32,000 nucleotides of DNA from Candidatus Saccharimonadota bacterium (GCF_039383305.1 NZ_CP135009.1:30001-62000); one strand, 5' to 3'; shown: positions 3,350-26,216, counted from the stretch's first letter. The notes: generated from the letters alone by a model not told the origin. Translations and numbers: made by a program.

Positions 3350-4240
3350 ATGTTAAAAACTTTTAATTTTTTTTCTATACCATTAATTCCAAAAAATATG
3401 TTAAATAAAAAAATTAATTTTTCGTTTGAATTTTTTCCTCCCAAAGATATTTTTGGAAAAAAAAAATTATTAAAAATAATTAAAGAATTAGAAAAAATTA
3501 AACCTATTTTTTTTTCTATTACACATAGTGTAAAATCTTTAAGTTATTTCAATACTGATCAAATTATTTTTTTTTTGTTAAATAATACTAAAATTCCGAT
3601 TATTCCTCATCTTACTTATATAAATTTTAAGAAAGCTGAAATTCAAAATATTGCAAAAAAATATTTAAAATATGGAATTAAAAGTGTTTTAGCTTTGCGC
3701 GGGGATTTACAAGAAAATCAAAAAAATTCTAATGTTTATTCAATAGATTTAATTAAAATTTTAAAAGAAATTGGGGATTTTAAGATTTTTGTAGCAGCTT
3801 ATCCTGAAATACATCCGGAATCTTCTAATATGTTAGAAGATTTAGAAAATTTAAAAAAAAAAAAAAATATGGGGGCAAATACTGCCATTACTCAATTTTT
3901 TTTTAGTATAGAAAAATTTTTATTTTTTAAAAAACAATGTTTATTACATAATGTTAGTTTAAAAATTATTCCGGGTATTTTACCTATATTGTCTTTTCAA
4001 CAATTATTACGTTTTAAAAATTTAACAAACGTTTTTATTCCTCCAAATATTTTTAAAGGTTTTTTAAAATATCAAGATAATTCTAAGAAATTTAAAGAAT
4101 ATAGTATAAATTTTACAGTGAATTTGATTTTAAAATTATTTCTACATGGCGTCACAGATTTTCATATTTATACTTTAAATCGTATAGATTTCTTTAAAAA
4201 AATTTTTTTATATTTACAAAAAATATTTTTAAAAATATAA
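3350..4240 (+). CDS. metF: 5,10-methylenetetrahydrofolate reductase
   Basis: The ORF is collinear with E. coli MetF (INFSFEFFPPK, ALRGD, VAAYPEIHPES, GANTAITQFFF, IIPGILP, DFHIYTLNR). Starting at ATG 3350 gives 296 aa, the same as E. coli. An upstream ATG at 3314 (ORF-track start) cannot be excluded. Confidence 0.9.
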   Translation: MLKTFNFFSIPLIPKNMLNKKINFSFEFFPPKDIFGKKKLLKIIKELEKIKPIFFSITHSVKSLSYFNTDQIIFFLLNNTKIPIIPHLTYINFKKAEIQNIAKKYLKYGIKSVLALRGDLQENQKNSNVYSIDLIKILKEIGDFKIFVAAYPEIHPESSNMLEDLENLKKKKNMGANTAITQFFFSIEKFLFFKKQCLLHNVSLKIIPGILPILSFQQLLRFKNLTNVFIPPNIFKGFLKYQDNSKKFKEYSINFTVNLILKLFLHGVTDFHIYTLNRIDFFKKIFLYLQKIFLKI

Positions 4241-11644: not shown

Positions 11645-12667
11645 ATGAGAGTTTTAGGAATTGAAACATCTTGTGATGATACTTCAGTTGCAATATATGA
11701 TGATAAGTTAGGAATAATTTTTGATAAAACTTTAAATCAAGATCTTATTCATTCTAAATATGGTGGGGTTGTTCCCGAGTTAGCTGCGAGAGCTCATATT
11801 AATCAATTAACATTTTTAATAAAAAAAAGTATTTCTAAAATACAATTTTTTAACAAAAAAAAGAAATTTAAAAAAAAAAATATTGATGCAATTTCTTATA
11901 CTGCTGGTCCGGGATTAATAGGTTCTTTATTAGTTGGTGCTACTATGGGGTGTACTTTATCTTGTGTTTGGGGTATTCCTTGTATACCAATTAATCATTT
12001 AGAAGGACATATTTTTTCTGTTATGTTAAATAAAATTCATCCCTCTTTTCCTTTTATTGTTTTATTAGTTTCTGGAGGAAATACACAATTAATACGTGTT
12101 AATGGAATAGGAGAATATTTAATTTTAGGAAAAACTATAGATGTAGCAGTAGGAAATGTTTTTGATAAGATAGCTAATAAATTAGATTTAAAATATCCTG
12201 GAGGGGAAAAATTATCTAAATTAGCTAGTTTTGGTCAAAATAATCAATATTATTTTCCTCGCCCTATGATTACTCCAATGAATTTAAATTTTAGTTTTTC
12301 TGGATTAAGAACCTATACTGAAAGAATTATTAAAAATAGTTCAAAAACTTTTCAAAATCAAGCAAATATTGCGAAAGCTTTTGAAGATGCAGTAGTAGAT
12401 ACATTAGTATTGAAATGTAGTTATGCAATTAAAAAAACTAATATTAAAACATTAATTGTTTGTGGAGGTGTAAGTTCTAATGTGTTATTAAGAAAAAAAT
12501 TAAAAATTTTATTAAAAAATTTAAATGGTCATTTTTTTTTTTCTAAAAAAAAATTTTGTACAGATAATGCAGCAATGATAGCATATACAGGATTTTTAAA
12601 ATTTCAAAAATATAAATATTCTGTTGCTTCTTCTATTTTAGTAAATTCTAAATGGAATATAGTTTAA
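11645..12667 (+). CDS. tsaD: tRNA N6-adenosine threonylcarbamoyltransferase TsaD (YgjD/Gcp)
   Basis: The 340-aa ORF has MRVLGIETSCDDT and the NHLEGHI metal-binding motif. It is divergent from rpsU as in E. coli. An AGGA sits 8 nt upstream of the ATG. Confidence 0.93.
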   Translation: MRVLGIETSCDDTSVAIYDDKLGIIFDKTLNQDLIHSKYGGVVPELAARAHINQLTFLIKKSISKIQFFNKKKKFKKKNIDAISYTAGPGLIGSLLVGATMGCTLSCVWGIPCIPINHLEGHIFSVMLNKIHPSFPFIVLLVSGGNTQLIRVNGIGEYLILGKTIDVAVGNVFDKIANKLDLKYPGGEKLSKLASFGQNNQYYFPRPMITPMNLNFSFSGLRTYTERIIKNSSKTFQNQANIAKAFEDAVVDTLVLKCSYAIKKTNIKTLIVCGGVSSNVLLRKKLKILLKNLNGHFFFSKKKFCTDNAAMIAYTGFLKFQKYKYSVASSILVNSKWNIV

Positions 12668-14053: not shown

Positions 14054-14551
14054 TTAAATTTCTAATTGAAAAATTTTTGTATGTCCAGATTTAATAATCT
14101 TTAAAGGTGCAATTAATAAGGAATGTTCTGATGTATATATTTCGAAATATATAAATAATAAAATAGGATATATTTGACATATTTTTTTGGTTTTTAAGAT
14201 CATAAAAATTTCTCTTGTATACAATTTTTCTTTAAAATAAAAAAAATTATAATAATTTGGATATAAAAATAATAATTTTTGTAAATTAAATTTCATACTA
14301 ATTTTAAAAATATTATTTGAATAAAAAAATATTTTTTTTTTCATGGAAAAATTTTTATAAACTTTTCCGGAATAAGGTGCTGTAATAATTTTTTTGAAAG
14401 GTTTAATAATAATTTTATAATAATATTTTTTTTTTTTATAGTTTTTTTTAGAAATTATATTTAATATTTTACCAGTAATAGGAGCGTAAATATATTCATT
14501 TTTTTTTTTTATATTTATTTTTTTTTGTATTAAATTATGATAAAAATTCAT
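14054..14551 (-). CDS. crr: EIIA-Glc (crr)-derived ORF without catalytic histidines; probable relic or repurposed protein
   Basis: The 165-aa ORF compares with 169 aa for E. coli Crr. IYAPITGKILNI matches IIAPLSGEIVNI, and IIIKPFKKIITAPYSGKVYKNF matches IAIKPTGNKMVAPVDGTIGKIF. The ungapped continuation places K at both E. coli His75 and His90. It is divergent from ligA, as the cysK-ptsHI-crr block is in E. coli, but cysK, ptsH and ptsI are absent. Confidence 0.55.
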   Translation of the reverse strand: MNFYHNLIQKKINIKKKNEYIYAPITGKILNIISKKNYKKKKYYYKIIIKPFKKIITAPYSGKVYKNFSMKKKIFFYSNNIFKISMKFNLQKLLFLYPNYYNFFYFKEKLYTREIFMILKTKKICQIYPILLFIYFEIYTSEHSLLIAPLKIIKSGHTKIFQLEI

Positions 14552-19158: not shown

Positions 19159-20829
19159 ATGAATTTTAAAAATTTATTATTTAAAGATGTTAAAAAAAAA
19201 TATAATTATTTAATGAATTATTTTTTTAAAAATTATCAAGTTTTTTTTATTTTTTTTTCTGGTATATGTGCAATAATATTTTCTATTATTTTTTGGATTC
19301 GTTCAGAAAATTATAAAATTTTATATGATTCCATTTCTAGAATTGAAGGAAGTGAAATTATAAAAAAATTAACAAGAATGAAAATTCCATATAAATTAGA
19401 TGAAAAAACTGGATCTATTTTAGTGCCAGAAAAAAAAATACAAGAAATAAAGTTTAAGTTAGCATATAAAAAAAATTTTTTTAAAAAAAATAATGGTTTT
19501 GAGATTTTAGATAAAGAAAAATTTGGAATTAGTGCGTTTAATGAAAAAATTAATTATAATCGTAGTTTAGAAGGTGAATTAGCGAGAACTTTACAAATAT
19601 TATATCCAATTAAAAATGTTCGTATTCATTTATCTATTCCTCAGGAATCTAGTTTCTTACATACTAATCATAATAATATTTCGGCTTCTATTTTATTATT
19701 TTTAGATTCTAAAATAAAATTAGATTTTTTACAAATAGAATCTTTAGTTCATTTTGTAGCTTTTAGTGTTCCTAACCTTACTTGTGATAAAATTGTTATT
19801 ATGGATCAGTTTGGAAATATGTTAAATACTATTGTACCTAATTTAAAAGATAATTATTTTTTTCATTTTTTAGAATTATATAATCAGCAATTAGAAAAAA
19901 AAATTAAAACTAGTATTACACAATTATTAACCCCAATTTTAGGTATTAAAAATTTTATTGTTCAAGTAACTGTTCAACAATTAGAAAATTTGTCTTTTAA
20001 TCAACAAAAAAAAGATAGAGTTTTGTATACAAAAGATAATAATAGTTTATTAAAATTAGTTCCTGAATATTTTAATGAGTTAGGAATTTCTTCTAATTCT
20101 GATTTTTTTTCTTCTAAAATGAAAAAAAAAATTTTTTTTAAAAAAAAAGAAAAATTACCTATTGAACAAAAAAAAAAAAAAATTAAAAAATCTGTAAATA
20201 CTATTGTAAAAAATAAAAAAAAAAATACTAAATTAAATAAAAGAAAAGATTATAAATATCATATTTTAAAATCTAAAAATATTTTTTTTAATGGTAAAAA
20301 AAGTATTTCTATCGTAATAATTTTAAATTATTATAAAAATTTAAAAGGAGAATTAGTTTCTTTTACCTCTACTGAATTGAATAATTTTAAATTTTTAATT
20401 AAATCGAGTTTACCGTTTCTTTCAAATTATCAAAATACTATTCGGGTTTTTAATCAATTATTTATTATTAGTCAGAAAAATATTTCGAAAAATATTTTTT
20501 TTAGAATATGGAATATTTTTTTTATAAAGAAAAATTTTTTATATTATTTTTTATTTTTTTTATTTTTTTTAATTTTTTGTATAAAATATAAAATTAATAA
20601 AATTTTTCAATATATTTTTAAAAAATATTGTCTAATTAAAATTTTTAATATTAATAAAAAACCTTTTTTAATTTCACAAAAAGATTTTCAGAAAAATTCT
20701 TTACAAAAGTTAAATAATAATAAAAATTCTAATTTTATCATTTCGAATATTCGAAAAAAAATATTAAATATGAGCGCAAAAACAATTGCGAAAATAATTC
20801 GTATTTGGTTTAAAAAAATGGAAAATTAA
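19159..20829 (+). CDS. fliF: Flagellar M-ring protein FliF
   Basis: The 556-aa ORF compares with 552 aa in E. coli. An N-terminal TM segment is followed by ISRIEGSEIIKKLTRMKIPYKLDEKTGSILVPEKKIQEIKFKLA, like FliF LSDQDGGAIVAQLTQMNIPYRF..IEVPADKVHELRLRLA. AGGA sits 7 nt upstream. A lysine-rich insertion includes an A15 tract. Confidence 0.9.
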   Translation: MNFKNLLFKDVKKKYNYLMNYFFKNYQVFFIFFSGICAIIFSIIFWIRSENYKILYDSISRIEGSEIIKKLTRMKIPYKLDEKTGSILVPEKKIQEIKFKLAYKKNFFKKNNGFEILDKEKFGISAFNEKINYNRSLEGELARTLQILYPIKNVRIHLSIPQESSFLHTNHNNISASILLFLDSKIKLDFLQIESLVHFVAFSVPNLTCDKIVIMDQFGNMLNTIVPNLKDNYFFHFLELYNQQLEKKIKTSITQLLTPILGIKNFIVQVTVQQLENLSFNQQKKDRVLYTKDNNSLLKLVPEYFNELGISSNSDFFSSKMKKKIFFKKKEKLPIEQKKKKIKKSVNTIVKNKKKNTKLNKRKDYKYHILKSKNIFFNGKKSISIVIILNYYKNLKGELVSFTSTELNNFKFLIKSSLPFLSNYQNTIRVFNQLFIISQKNISKNIFFRIWNIFFIKKNFLYYFLFFLFFLIFCIKYKINKIFQYIFKKYCLIKIFNINKKPFLISQKDFQKNSLQKLNNNKNSNFIISNIRKKILNMSAKTIAKIIRIWFKKMEN

Positions 20830-20835
20830 AATTGT

Positions 20836-21426
20836 ATGGAAAAAATAAAAATTATTCAAAAAATTGCAATTTTTTTATTATCTTTAAATAAAAGAAAAAT
20901 TATAGAAGTATTAAAATTTCTTGATAAAAAAGAAATTATAATTTTTAGTGAGGAAATGTTTAAAATTGATAAAAAATTATTAAAAAATAGTAACAACATT
21001 TTAAAAGAATTTTTAGAAGTTTATAAATTTTATTTTTCACATAAATTTCAAAATTTTGATCAAGTGATGTTATTATTAAAAAATTCTATTGTAAAAAATA
21101 AAGATCAAAATGTTATAAAAAAACCTCAAATTAAATATAAATTTTTAAATAAAATCTTATTTTTAAATACATTAAAAAGTTTTGACATTTTTAATTTTTT
21201 AAAAAATGAATCAAGTATGATTATTAGTATTTTTTTAATTTATTTAAAAAAAAAAAAGTCTTTAAAAATATTTTTTTTATTTAAAAAAAAAAAACGTTTA
21301 AAAATTTTTAAAAATATTAAAAATTTTACTGGTATTAAAAAATTTGGATTTTTTATTTTAAATCGAATTTTAAAAGATAAATTTAAAAAATTTAATTTTA
21401 TTATTAAAAAAAAAAAGAGTATTTAA
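20836..21426 (+). CDS. fliG: Flagellar rotor/switch protein FliG, truncated to the N-terminal and middle domains (196 aa vs 331 aa in E. coli)
   Basis: [33 protein letters not shown] aligns with E. coli [59 protein letters not shown] aligns with [36 protein letters not shown]. The ORF ends near E. coli residue ~200. Only 157 bp remain before fliH, with stops in all frames. Confidence 0.78.
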   Translation: [196 protein letters not shown]

Positions 21427-21583
21427 TATGTGTTAAATTATTTAAAATTTTTTAAAAAATAAAAAAAATAATATATAAAAAATAAATAATTTTTTATATA
21501 AAAATAATTTTTTATATAAATTTTAATTTTTATAAATTTTTTAAAATATATAATTTTTAAGAATATTACTTAGAGGAAAAAAT

Positions 21584-22485
21584 ATGTTAGATATAAAAAA
21601 AAAAAATGGAAAAAATGGCATCCACCAGTTTTAACAAAAAAAAAAAATATTAAAAAAAAAATACAAAATAAAAAATTTTTATTTTCTAAAAATTTAAATA
21701 TTCAAAATAATAAAAAGATAAAAAAATGTTTATTTAATATTCATAAAAAAGATTGTAAAATAAATTTATCATTAAAATCTTTAAAATTAAATCAAAAATT
21801 ATGTAAGGAAGGTTATCAAATAGGATATAAAGAAGGGCATCAAGCAGGATATAAAGAAGGGCATCAAGCAGGATATAAAGAAGGGCATCAAGCAGGATAT
21901 AAAGAAGGGCATCAAGCAGGATATAAAGAAGGGCATCAAGCAGGATATAAAGAAGGATATACAGAAGGATATAATGTTTCTGATTTCGTTCAAAAATTTC
22001 AAATTACAAAAAAAAATTTGCGAGATTTTGAAAAAAAATATATTTCTTTTATTTTAAAAGAAAAAATTCATAAAATTAATCTTTTATTAACAGAATTTAA
22101 AAAATCAATTATTATGTTAAATGATGATGTTTCATTAAAATTGTTTGAAATATCAATTAAAATTTCTGAATTTATAGTTTCTGATGTTTTATTAGTCGAT
22201 AAATTTTTAGTATTACGAAAAATTTCTATGATATTAAAAAAAGTTAAAAATTCTATGGAAAATTTAATAATTAAAGTACATTCAAAAAATGAATTTTTAG
22301 TTAAAAAAAAATTTTCTGCTTTTTTTCAAAGTTATGATTGGAAAATTTTAATTGATAATACATTAGATCAATATAGTTGTTATGTAATTATTGATAATAT
22401 GGAAATTGATGGAACAATATCTGCAATTTGGAATTCTGTATATGAACTATCAGGAATCACTAAGGATAAAAAAGATGATAATTAA
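21584..22485 (+). CDS. fliH: Flagellar export ATPase regulator FliH; reading frame interrupted at an A12 tract near the 5' end (needs +1 A to be in frame)
   Basis: AGAGGA plus ATG 21584 give MLDIKKK, then a stop at 21632 in that frame. The long frame (open 21574-22485, no start codon of its own) reads KKWKKWHPPVL.. (E. coli FliH LPWKTWTPDDL), then a GYKEGHQA repeat ladder (E. coli GYQAGIAEGRQQGHEQGYQEG), then the C-terminal domain. The stop lies 11 nt inside fliI. Confidence 0.8.
21823..21956 (+). repeat. Perfect 24-bp tandem repeat, 5 full copies plus a 14-nt partial copy, in frame within fliH (GYKEGHQA units)
   Basis: GGATATAAAGAAGGGCATCAAGCA occurs at 21823, 21847, 21871, 21895 and 21919 with no mismatch. 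Degenerate copies flank it (KEGYQI upstream, GYKEGYTEGYN downstream). Confidence 0.97.
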
Positions 22486-23875
22486 TCAAAATCCTTGGTA
22501 TCAAAAATTAAATAATTTTGAAAATAAAATAGAATTTTTATCTGATTTGATATTTTTTGGTAGATTAATAAGTGTGAATGATTTAGTATTAGAAGTAGTT
22601 GGTTTACAACAAGAAATTGGATCTTTATGTTATATAGAATGTTTTAGGAAGAAAAAAAAAATTTTAGTAACGTGTGAAATTATTGGTTTTAGAGAAAAAA
22701 AGACTTTTTTAATTTCTTTTGATTATACTTATAATTTCTTTCCTGGAGCTCGTGTTTTTATTAAAAGTCAAAAAAAAAATTTTTTAGAAAATTCTCAGAT
22801 TTTTCCTTTTGGTAGAGGATTGTTAGGCAGAATTTTAGATAGTACAGGTTTTCCTTTAGATCAATTAGGGACATTTAAAGGGGAAATATTTTATAAATCT
22901 TTTTATCATAAAAATATTAATCCATTAAAAAGAACTCCCATTACTAAAATTTTTGATACAGGTATACAAGCAATTAATAGTTTATTAACTATTGGTCAAG
23001 GTCAAAGAATAGGAATTTTTGCGCGTCCAGGAGTAGGAAAAAGTTTATTATTAGGTATGATTACACGTTATTCTGCTGTAGAGATTATTATTGTTGCTTT
23101 AGTTGGAGAAAGAAATCGAGAAGTATTAGATTTTGTTCATAATATTTTAAATAAAGAAAGTTTAAAGAAATCTATTATTATTGTATCTACCGCTGATTCA
23201 CCTCCAATATTACGAATTAAAGCTGTCTCTTATGCTACTTCTTTAGCTGAATTTTTTCGTTCTTTAAATAAAAATGTTTTATTAATTTGTGACTCTCTAA
23301 CACGTTATGCTATTGCATATCGTGAAATTTCTTTATCATTAGGCGCTTTCCCTATTTCTAGAGGATATCCAGTTTCTATTTTTTCAAATATACCTTCTTT
23401 GATTGAAAGGACTGGAAATTCTATGAATAAAAATGGTACTATTACTTCTTTTTATACTATTTTAACGGAGGGGGATGAAGATAATGATCCGATTTTAGAT
23501 ATTTCAAAATCTATTTTAGATGGTCATATTATGTTATCTAACATATTATCTAATGCTGGTCATTATCCAGCGATTGACATTGAATTATCTATTAGTCGGT
23601 TAATGTCTTCGATTGTATCTTCTTCACATTTAAAAAATGCAATTTTTTTAAAGAAATTAATTTCATGTTATAATACACATAAAGATTTAATTACGTTGGG
23701 TGCTTATGTACCAGGAAAAAATTTTTTATTAGATCAATCTGTACAAATGTGGCCATTAATAGAAAAATTTTTAAAACAAGATTTTTTATTTAGTGTTTCA
23801 TATGATACTTCTTTATTACATTTAGAAAATTTATTAAAAAATTTATATGTGAAAAAAGAGAAAATTAATATATGA
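22475..23875 (+). CDS. fliI: Flagellum-specific (type III export) ATPase FliI
   Basis: Walker A is FARPGVGKSLLLGM and Walker B is LLICDSLTRYA, and PPILR and GHYPAID are conserved. The start is set at ATG 22475 (AAGGA 8 nt upstream), giving 466 aa against 457 aa in E. coli. The ORF-track start at 22391 lies inside fliH. Confidence 0.95.
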   Translation: MIINQNPWYQKLNNFENKIEFLSDLIFFGRLISVNDLVLEVVGLQQEIGSLCYIECFRKKKKILVTCEIIGFREKKTFLISFDYTYNFFPGARVFIKSQKKNFLENSQIFPFGRGLLGRILDSTGFPLDQLGTFKGEIFYKSFYHKNINPLKRTPITKIFDTGIQAINSLLTIGQGQRIGIFARPGVGKSLLLGMITRYSAVEIIIVALVGERNREVLDFVHNILNKESLKKSIIIVSTADSPPILRIKAVSYATSLAEFFRSLNKNVLLICDSLTRYAIAYREISLSLGAFPISRGYPVSIFSNIPSLIERTGNSMNKNGTITSFYTILTEGDEDNDPILDISKSILDGHIMLSNILSNAGHYPAIDIELSISRLMSSIVSSSHLKNAIFLKKLISCYNTHKDLITLGAYVPGKNFLLDQSVQMWPLIEKFLKQDFLFSVSYDTSLLHLENLLKNLYVKKEKINI

Positions 23876-24437: not shown

Positions 24438-25847
24438 TTGTATATAAAAAAATTAAAATTTATGAAATTTTATTGGTTAAATAATCAAAAAAATTTAAAA
24501 TATTCTTTTAAAAAAAAAGAAGAAATAAAAATTAAAATTTTTAAAAATTTTTCAATTATAAAAAAAAAAATAGATTTATATTTTTTTGAAAAAAATTTTT
24601 TTTTAGAAGAAAAAATTTTTAAAATATGTTCTCAATTAGAAAAAATTTTTAAAAAAGAATTTGATTTAACTTGTAAAGTGAATTATAAAATTCAAAATTA
24701 TTTTCAAAATTCTACTATGAAAATATCTCATGATTTGTGTTTTTTAGAAAAATTATATTTTTTAAAAGATTTTAATAGTATTTTAGGATTATTAATATCT
24801 CAAAATATGATTAATTTTTTTTTAAATATATTTTTAAATCAAAAAAAAAATAATATTTTAATAAAATTTAAAAATAAATATTCGAAAATTGAATTAACAA
24901 TTTTTAAAATTTTAACTAAATTTCTTTATAAAATTTTTTATAAAAATTTTCTTTTAATATTTCAGGAAATACGATTTTATGATATTTCTAATTTATTTAT
25001 GAAAAAAAAAAATATTAAAGAAAATGAAAATTTTAATTTAATTATTAAATTTTATATTACATCTCAATATGGTTCGGGTATTTTTTTTAACATATATTCA
25101 ACTAATATTATAAAAAATTTTTTATTTAAAAAAAAGAAAAAAATTTTATTTCAAAAAAAAAAAATATATTTTGCAACATTATATAGTTCTATGTTAATGT
25201 TGCAAAAAATTCCATTTATACTTAGGGTTTTTTCTCAAAATTATTTTATTTTTTTATCTGAATTTTTAAAATGGAAATGTAATTATATTTTTTTTATAAA
25301 AGAAATAAAAATTGTAACAGCATATATTGAAAGATTTTCAATTTTTTTAGCTAAATATGGGCTTTATAATAAAGAGTATTCACTTCAAATTTTAAAAATT
25401 TTAAAAATTCAAAAAAAAAATTTATTTTTTCAGGAGTCCGATATGAATATAGATGAACAAAATAATAAAAAAATATTAGAAAAATCTTTGAAAAATTTTA
25501 CATTAGAAAAAAATAATTCTAATTTTCAAGATTCTATTTTAAAAAATCAAAAAAAAGATTCATCTTATAAAATTTCGAAAGAAAAAACTATTCTTTCAAA
25601 AAATTTTAAAAATTTAAAAATTATTTCTCATTTACCAATGAATATTACAGTAGAATTAGGTTATAAAAAAATTACTATTAAAAAATTATTAACGTTAACA
25701 AATGGATCTATAATTTCATTAAAAAAAAAAGAAGGAGATGCTTTAAATATTTTTGCAAATGGATATTTAATAGCTCAAGGAGAATTAGTAATGGTAAAAA
25801 AAAAATATGGAATACGAATTATTTCGATGATTTCTGATCCTATCTAA
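24438..25847 (+). CDS. fliM: Single ORF encoding FliM (residues 1-335) fused in frame to FliN (residues 336-469)
   Basis: The N-terminal ~335 aa are collinear with FliM in length and hydrophobic pattern (C-terminal IPFILRVFSQNYFIFLSEFLKWKCNYIFF..YGLYNKEYSLQILKIL vs LELVANFADISLRLSQILKLNPGDVLPI..YGTLNGQYALRIEHLI). No stop codon precedes the FliN part. TTG 24438 has AAGGA 6 nt upstream, and ATG 24462 is an alternative start. Confidence 0.75.
   Translation: MYIKKLKFMKFYWLNNQKNLKYSFKKKEEIKIKIFKNFSIIKKKIDLYFFEKNFFLEEKIFKICSQLEKIFKKEFDLTCKVNYKIQNYFQNSTMKISHDLCFLEKLYFLKDFNSILGLLISQNMINFFLNIFLNQKKNNILIKFKNKYSKIELTIFKILTKFLYKIFYKNFLLIFQEIRFYDISNLFMKKKNIKENENFNLIIKFYITSQYGSGIFFNIYSTNIIKNFLFKKKKKILFQKKKIYFATLYSSMLMLQKIPFILRVFSQNYFIFLSEFLKWKCNYIFFIKEIKIVTAYIERFSIFLAKYGLYNKEYSLQILKILKIQKKNLFFQESDMNIDEQNNKKILEKSLKNFTLEKNNSNFQDSILKNQKKDSSYKISKEKTILSKNFKNLKIISHLPMNITVELGYKKITIKKLLTLTNGSIISLKKKEGDALNIFANGYLIAQGELVMVKKKYGIRIISMISDPI
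25443..25847 (+). CDS. fliN: Flagellar switch/C-ring protein FliN (possible independent initiation inside the fused ORF)
   Basis: AGGAG (25432-25436) lies 6 nt upstream of the in-frame ATG 25443. The 134-aa product compares with 137 aa in E. coli. NITVELGYKKITIKKLLTLTNGSIISL..LNIFANGYLIAQGELVMVKKKYGIRI matches KLTVELGRTRMTIKELLRLTQGSVVAL..LDILINGYLIAQGEVVVVADKYGVRI. Confidence 0.85.
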   Translation: MNIDEQNNKKILEKSLKNFTLEKNNSNFQDSILKNQKKDSSYKISKEKTILSKNFKNLKIISHLPMNITVELGYKKITIKKLLTLTNGSIISLKKKEGDALNIFANGYLIAQGELVMVKKKYGIRIISMISDPI

Positions 25848-25883: not shown

Positions 25884-26216
25884 ATGTATAATTTTAGAAA
25901 AAATTTTTTATTTATTTTTTTAAACAAATGTTTTTATTTTTTTTATAATAATGAATCTTTAAAGTATATAAATTTTTCTGTAATATTGTTTTTATGTTTT
26001 ATTTTTTTGTTTTTTTTTTATATTAAAAAAACAGGTTTAGTAAATACTACTAAAACTTCTAATTCTATTACTTTATTAGAGCAATTTTATTTAACTGCTC
26101 ATCAAAAAATTATTATTATAAAGATTAGGAAGGTAAATTTAGTTTTAGGAGTTACAGAAAAAAATATCAATTTTTTATATATATTACCATCTTCAATAAA
26201 AAAAAATTATAATTAA
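25884..26216 (+). CDS. fliO: Flagellar biosynthesis protein FliO
   Basis: The 110-aa ORF sits between fliN and fliP and has one hydrophobic segment (FSVILFLCFIFLFFFY). SITLLEQFYLTAHQKIIIIKIRKVNLVLGVTEKNINFLYILPSS matches E. coli FliO LKISASASLGARERVVVVDVEDARLVLGVTAGQINLLHKLPPS. Confidence 0.7.
   Translation: MYNFRKNFLFIFLNKCFYFFYNNESLKYINFSVILFLCFIFLFFFYIKKTGLVNTTKTSNSITLLEQFYLTAHQKIIIIKIRKVNLVLGVTEKNINFLYILPSSIKKNYN

Follow-up and report, generated by a model that had tools for sequence, protein, structure and literature searches.

The window, that is, the whole 32,000-nt stretch of DNA analysed here (NZ_CP135009.1:30001-62000), belongs to Buchnera aphidicola of the aphid Nippolachnus piri, as identified by exact-protein look-ups and the published sample list (PMC11193766). 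It carries flagellar genes in the order fliE, fliF, fliG, fliH, fliI, and fliJ, which is the same as in E. coli, and these are followed by a FliM/FliN-like ORF, fliO, fliP, fliQ, and fliR. Housekeeping genes are present around them, including rplA, rplK, nusG, secE, metF, argG, argH, and rpoD, as well as dnaG, tsaD, cca, ligA, gltX, ppa, and pmbA. All features of fliH and fliI described below are located on the + strand. The ATPase partner gene fliI (22475-23875) overlaps the end of fliH with its ATG and has its own AAGGA at 22462-22466.

The gene fliG (20836-21426) is truncated and encodes 196 aa, which cover the N-terminal domain and some of the middle domain, the FliG_C torque domain being absent. 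It is also short in Buchnera of Tuberolachnus salignus (210 aa) and in contig L021 (217 aa), and is 315-326 aa long in other Lachninae-type Buchnera. Downstream of fliJ, one ORF of 469 aa (24438-25847) possesses a FliM C-terminal-like segment (residues 273-318 match E. coli FliM, E=1e-5) and a FliN domain (40% identity with E. coli FliN over residues 370-466), in which the hydrophobic patch reads LVMV, compared with VVVV in E. coli. Neither fliK nor fliL was found between fliJ and this ORF, which looks like a FliM-FliN fusion by these matches. Similar long ORFs are present in T. salignus, L015, and L019, and two separate genes in the Cinara cedri strain.

The gene fliH has its start codon and its body in different reading frames. 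A Shine-Dalgarno sequence, AGAGGA (21573-21578), is located 5 nt 5' of ATG 21584-21586, which opens a short zero-frame ORF (21584-21634) translated as MLDIKKKNGKNGIHQF and closed by TAA 21632-21634; its 16 codons encode the product expected from unslipped decoding. The FliH body frame (21607-22485) comprises 292 codons and TAA 22483-22485 in the open-frame scan, and it contains no stop, while the remaining five frames contain 17-44 stops across the same stretch. Upstream, the body frame is closed by a TAG at 21571-21573, which is probably a relic of the ancestral fliG stop, since 'TAGG' is conserved just 5' of fliH in other Buchnera. The same 'TAGG', corresponding to the fliG stop/fliH Shine-Dalgarno sequence in relatives, ends the AT-rich fliG-fliH spacer (21427-21583). 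After the TAG, the body frame reads AGG AAA AAA TAT GTT AGA TAT AAA AAA AAA AAA TGG, with no ATG, GTG, TTG, ATT, or ATA before the tract, and its earliest ATG/GTG/TTG is TTG 22018.

The ATG frame and the body frame adjoin at an A run exactly 12 nt long (21595-21606), the proposed slip site, four codons past the start codon. The spacing from ATG 21584 to TGG 21607 is 23 nt, and one added A restores the register: A13 (or A10) at this position would join the ATG frame with the FliH body, and with A13 the joined reading is ATG TTA GAT ATA AAA AAA AAA AAA TGG. In-frame A12 and A10 runs within the body (21636-21647 and 21652-21661) are further slippage-prone sites. Direct reading confirmed what the original prediction had stated for this region, namely the AGAGGA and ATG with their stop, a body frame of about 290 codons that opens after the TAG without any start codon, and an A12 tract at which A13 joins both frames exactly.

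Long A/T runs are common in the window, with 103 of at least 9 nt and 16 of at least 12 nt, nearly all of which lie within intact ORFs. The A12 tract itself is ordinary, and it is the out-of-register state that is the exception. What goes beyond chance is that the frame breaks exactly between the sole Shine-Dalgarno sequence with ATG and a stop-free frame of 292 codons.

The protein obtained with A13, which is called repaired FliH here, starts with MLDIKKKKWKKWHPPVL and has 300 aa. NCBIfam FliH models match the body (E=7.7e-27 for NF004266), and the score, 94 bits, does not reach the equivalog cut-off of 260 bits. An alignment to Salmonella FliH (PDB 5B0O, E=3.3e-6) covers residues 164-289 of repaired FliH, which places the C-terminal FliI-binding domain at 22072-22449. 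Repaired FliH also aligns end to end with intact orthologues, though its identity to E. coli FliH is only 18%. A W-K-K-W motif encoded by TGG AAA AAA TGG (21607-21618) aligns with E. coli W7/W10 and corresponds to Trp7/Trp10 of Salmonella FliH, which have been shown to mediate FliN and FlhA binding (PMC4185386). All nine aligned FliH proteins, that of E. coli included, share the first Trp, and the N-terminal resemblance to E. coli claimed in the original prediction was found as described, as FliH of E. coli K-12 starts with MSDNLPWKTWTPDDL.

A PDB search with the 22-residue N-terminus gave no match. In a homology search with repaired FliH, the results were swamped by a GYKEGHQA repeat (Yae1_N-like) and contained no Buchnera FliH, and the 155-aa C-terminal part retrieved only itself, with no 300-aa version in the protein collection. 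A GTDB genome scan with exact-peptide patterns of FliI returned Burkholderiales only, the patterns being too specific.

The GYKEGHQA repeat is encoded by a 24-nt tandem repeat of about seven copies (21804-21974, repeat scan), five of which are perfect. By its sequence it is taken as an expanded form of the GxxxG repeats of FliH, a class described previously (PMC2674601), and it is absent from T. salignus fliH. Like canonical E. coli/Salmonella FliH, the protein thus possesses a W-x-x-W motif, a GxxxG region, and a C-terminal FliI-binding domain, and its gene takes the same position between fliG and fliI, with the same overlap onto the fliI start. Unlike canonical FliH, it falls below the NCBIfam equivalog cut-offs and belongs to a non-motile basal-body/secretion apparatus with a truncated FliG and an apparently fused FliM-FliN.

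A second genome of the N. piri symbiont allows the A12 tract to be read twice. According to the published sample list, CP135006 is sample 09 (417,640 bp) and CP135009 is sample 10 (417,660 bp), both sequenced on Illumina NovaSeq and assembled with MEGAHIT (PMC11193766). Over 20.6 kb, the window and CP135006.1 differ by two synonymous SNPs, at 11689 in tsaD and at 25964 in fliO (AAG/AAA), and by one 24-nt fliH repeat unit, which is extra in the window (21834-21857), so that CP135006.1 has one unit, or eight codons, fewer in frame. The repeat copy number may partly be an assembly matter, as the repeat length is about that of a 150-nt read. Since the two assemblies differ elsewhere, they are independent readings of the tract, and both have A12. 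Logan contigs of the N. piri runs break off at two repeats, one of 18 nt in an intergenic region and the 24-nt tandem repeat, and none of them spans the tract.

The original prediction had also considered that A12 might be a homopolymer error and that the true genome has A13. Such an error would fit PCR-amplified Illumina libraries assembled with MEGAHIT (PMC11193766), in which long homopolymers are error-prone. However, both N. piri samples, with their real differences elsewhere, have A12, and the same minus-one state occurs in four T. salignus assemblies under separate accessions. Moreover, about 90 other long runs of the window lie within intact ORFs, which speaks against a systematic homopolymer error. 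We regard a sequencing or assembly error as exceedingly improbable.

The closest FliI (77% identity) is that of Buchnera of T. salignus, for which four assemblies were compared: LN890285.1, CP135003.1, OZ035016.1, and one Logan contig, with the host of LN890285.1 and CP135003 given as T. salignus (PMC11193766). Their fliH genes are 100% identical. The 5' end reads ATG AAA AAT TTT A10 TTGG, with the N. piri spacing of 23 nt between ATG and TGG, and the tract, A10, is in the minus-one state, in which one added A gives MKNFKKKNWKKWIPSIL. The ATG frame likewise forms an equivalent ORF of 16 codons, MKNFKKKIGKNGYLLF*. The 12 nt encoding W-K-K-W, TGGAAAAAATGG, follow directly 3' of the tract and are identical in both symbionts. 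The comparison of tract length among sister strains, suggested in the original prediction, therefore gave A12 in both N. piri and A10 in all four T. salignus assemblies. Besides the out-of-frame A10 (3314-3323 on L012), T. salignus fliH contains an in-frame A14 (3401-3414) and A12 (3518-3529), making three long slippery tracts within a gene of 230 codons.

As outgroups, six Lachninae-type Buchnera were used: the C. cedri strain, plus five metagenome or Logan contigs. Their fliH is in frame in 6/6, with the start 8-9 codons before the Trp. For instance, MNHFIKKNWEKWIP has an A9 run and a spacing of 24 nt between its start and TGG, and VKNFIKKKIWKHWRP has an A11 run. In a distance tree of FliI, the N. 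piri and T. salignus symbionts are sisters, separated by a distance of 24%, compared with at least 41% to all others. By parsimony over these two lineages, from which the age of the frameshift is estimated, the sequences are most likely explained by one deletion in the common ancestor of both symbionts, while two independent recent deletions at this indel hot spot are possible.

The rest of the gene was examined for decay. The fliH bodies of N. piri and T. salignus share 48% protein identity (about 53% divergence) and show 229 nucleotide differences in 672 aligned sites, without a stop in either, and all length differences between them are multiples of three. Neutral simulation gave 17-18 stops when all changes were placed in one sequence and 10-11 per lineage when half were, and none of 3000 runs remained stop-free. 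With only 10% of the divergence, the chance of an open frame would be 6-7% per lineage. Differences are fewer at second codon positions (0.24) than at first (0.40) and third (0.39) positions. NG86 omega for fliH of N. piri/T. salignus is 0.67, compared with 0.83 for an intact fliH pair (L016 vs C. cedri), 0.70 for fliF and fliJ, and 0.27 for fliI of the same two symbionts, and these values, inflated by saturated dS in an AT-rich genome, are meaningful only as a relative comparison. On that relative scale, the frameshifted fliH shows no acceleration of protein evolution vs intact fliH, fliF, and fliJ. As well, the W-x-x-W codons, which are rich in G, have been kept in a genome whose G+C content is about 21% (PMC11193766), and these Trp codons can be translated only after a frame change from ATG 21584, because the body frame has no start upstream of them. 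Surfaces for the partners of FliH are likewise retained, namely the hydrophobic patch of the FliN domain and the FliI-binding domain of FliH, and fliI itself is intact and constrained. Selection thus appears to have kept the rest of fliH intact, and a fresh pseudogene is unlikely.

A pseudogene might nevertheless be expected on other grounds, either through independent recent deletions or because the ATPase module is being lost, the frame being undecayed so far. Homopolymer runs are indel hot spots that initiate gene erosion in Buchnera, according to PMC5574713 and PMC3017870, the ATPase gene fliI is often shed in other Buchnera (PMC8109811), the neighbouring fliG has already lost its C-terminal domain, and no gene caller gives a full-length fliH. 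Since fliI has been lost altogether in some Buchnera lineages (PMC8109811), the FliH/FliI module is not universally required in Buchnera. However, both lineages would have to be caught briefly after independent hits of the same sign in the same tract, and even with no more than 10% of the divergence later than these events, the joint probability that both frames have no stop would be about 0.004. Unraised omega, the retained W-x-x-W codons, and a tract length fixed in two N. piri and four T. salignus assemblies argue in the same direction. In addition, fliI is the most constrained gene of the cluster, and FliH anchors FliI to the basal body via FliN. We therefore consider it quite unlikely that fliH is a pseudogene.

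The original prediction had left the choice between a fresh pseudogene and expression limited by slippage. The first part is unlikely, given the same minus-one state in the sister genus and an ORF, W-x-x-W, and C-terminal domain that are conserved like intact flagellar genes. The second part is favoured by the evidence against a fresh pseudogene and against an assembly error. Slippage in Buchnera and Blochmannia, to which that prediction had appealed, also proved to be the right frame for the case.

The frame change would not be needed if translation began at a codon of the body frame itself, either further downstream or non-canonical. Candidates are ATT 21649 and TTG 22018, the latter giving a 155-aa C-terminal fragment, and in T. 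salignus a position directly after WKKW (L012:3337), which underlies the 220-aa call of LN890285 and is an ATA codon as read. Gene callers do propose such starts, with 155 aa in N. piri and 220, 143, or 119 aa for identical T. salignus DNA, and the C-terminal FliI-binding domain would still be produced. However, none of these candidates has a Shine-Dalgarno sequence, poly(A) or AT-rich sequence lying 5' of each, and their positions are not conserved between N. piri and T. salignus. The 137 codons 5' of TTG 22018, which are open and conserved (W-x-x-W, GxxxG), would then not be required, and a good Shine-Dalgarno sequence with ATG stands exactly at the start position of intact orthologues. An internal start is accordingly regarded as very unlikely. 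Two other starts were tried and rejected. Initiation in the body frame 5' of the Trp finds no near-cognate codons, the frame in T. salignus opening with only three non-start codons (AAA AAA AAT) between the preceding stop and the first Trp. The third-frame ATGs at 21606 and 21615, combined with a deletion in the second A12, have no Shine-Dalgarno sequence and no T. salignus counterpart, and their product would be without W-x-x-W.

With moderate confidence, we suggest from these sequences a real, heritable deficit in A12, probably ancestral and tolerated, with low-level FliH being made through slippage that adds one A and/or through ribosome sliding. A single A would have been lost in the ancestor of the Nippolachnus and Tuberolachnus symbionts and the loss tolerated since. 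Ribosomes would initiate at ATG 21584, and on unedited A12 mRNA translation would end after 16 codons. RNA polymerase is presumed to slip backward on the T12 template and to add one extra A in a minority of transcripts, and these A13 transcripts would encode full-length FliH of 300 aa. The ribosome could contribute as well, by slipping -1 or sliding within A12, and the protein would be identical. The net effect would be a low level of FliH, set by slippage, relative to FliI. As fliI has its own AAGGA, FliI would be made independently of FliH, and a low FliH:FliI ratio is expected. Two additional A runs within the body would further reduce the amount of correct product.

Polymerase slippage is ranked first because this mechanism has been shown experimentally in this group of organisms. 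In Blochmannia and Buchnera, frameshifts in A/T runs are conserved between species and rescued by transcriptional slippage, and frameshifted genes give about 30% full-length transcripts, as summarised in PMC3017870. In Buchnera, 151 of 157 insertions during transcription occurred in homopolymer runs and were mostly +1 (PMC5574713), which is the direction needed at A12. The same genome-wide study, performed in a different Buchnera strain, found no transcription error that restored a reading frame (PMC5574713).

The ribosome rather than RNA polymerase might mainly correct the frame, by a -1 slip on A_AAA_AAA or by sliding on A12, an alternative that was absent from the original prediction. The protein would be the same, MLDIKKKKW..., as from the A13 transcript. 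The zero frame, ATA AAA AAA AAA AAT, holds the heptamer A AAA AAA, on which a -1 slip leads into the body frame; TTT AAA AAA AAA ATT of T. salignus permits the same slip; and E. coli ribosomes slide robustly on A11 and little on A9 (PMC4363877). However, no stimulatory RNA structure was found downstream in either species, as the predicted folding energies (-4.2 kcal/mol, z=-0.34, and -8.1 kcal/mol, z=-0.76) do not surpass those of shuffled sequences, and PMC3017870 attributes the published Buchnera/Blochmannia rescue to transcript heterogeneity. Both processes may act together and are inseparable in the sequence. That the ribosome plays the main part is considered rather unlikely.

Other known systems share features with fliH. 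As in poly(A) ribosome sliding (Koutmou et al. 2015, PMC4363877), an AAA-lysine run is present, and A12 exceeds the A11 threshold for robust sliding; unlike the rescue suggested for fliH, published sliding is a source of errors and truncated products (PMC4363877). Similar to dnaX-type -1 frameshifting on A AAA AAG, fliH has a slippery AAA run on which -1 gives the needed frame, but it has neither a downstream stimulatory structure nor an SD-like element at the dnaX spacing. In phase-variable contingency loci of pathogens, a homopolymer near the 5' end of the coding sequence likewise sets the open frame. In contrast to them, the fliH tract is invariant in length and off register in 2/2 N. piri and 4/4 T. 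salignus assemblies. Phase variation is not supported, as this small sample of two and four assemblies shows no on/off length polymorphism.

The known class to which fliH belongs is that of persistent poly(A) frameshifts of insect endosymbionts, and the gene, the Tuberolachnini, and the position of the tract are specific to this case. As in endosymbiont genes rescued by slippage, there is a one-base indel in an A run of at least 10 nt in an otherwise intact gene of an AT-rich genome, the frameshift is conserved across species without a raised rate, and the correction takes one extra A. Precedents reportedly include those of Tamas et al. 2008 (PNAS) and Wernegreen et al. 2010 (MBE). A further one is Williams & Wernegreen 2010 (PMC3017870). 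Neither fliH nor Tuberolachnini hosts are among the published cases examined. Unlike in those cases, the tract lies four codons after the start and 5' of every functional element, so that the unslipped peptide has 16 residues, and the expression of fliH is deduced from sequence. No fliH frameshift in Buchnera was found among the papers searched, and neither fliH nor slippage is mentioned in the T. salignus genome paper.

The out-of-frame start of fliH has misled automated annotation. Calls on identical T. salignus DNA give 143, 220, or 119 aa or none at all, and the call in N. piri, present on both genomes, has 155 aa (L005, L011, L012, L013, and L014). With such miscalled products, tables of flagellar gene content in Buchnera would erroneously show the fliH of Tuberolachnini as truncated or lost. 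The locus provides a clean case, common to two aphid genera, of an endosymbiont gene that survives despite an out-of-frame start codon. Should expression be confirmed, the site would be convenient for separating polymerase slippage from ribosome slippage, with the 16-residue unslipped product and the first tryptic peptide of the body frame, WHPPVLTK, being diagnostic.

It has also been considered whether the minus-one tract is a selected recoding site, kept since before the split of Nippolachnus and Tuberolachnus, which we regard as doubtful. If true, the tract would fix a very low FliH:FliI ratio in a reduced flagellar apparatus (truncated FliG, fused FliM-FliN) that now serves secretion, and selection would keep the run uninterrupted and at least 10 nt long, with slippage remaining efficient.

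Finally, other long runs were noted in the window. A T19 on the + strand (A19 in the mRNA, 695-713) lies in frame in an apparently intact rplA, and in-frame A15 runs are present in the apparently intact genes metF (3853-3867) and fliF (20168-20182). If slippage occurs at the published frequency, a considerable fraction of the proteins made from these essential genes would be aberrant. An ORF of 165 aa on the - strand (14054-14551) shows a sub-threshold match to PTS EIIA (crr-like, 23 bits vs a cut-off of 27) and carries four T runs of 9-12 nt; it may be strongly diverged or degenerating.
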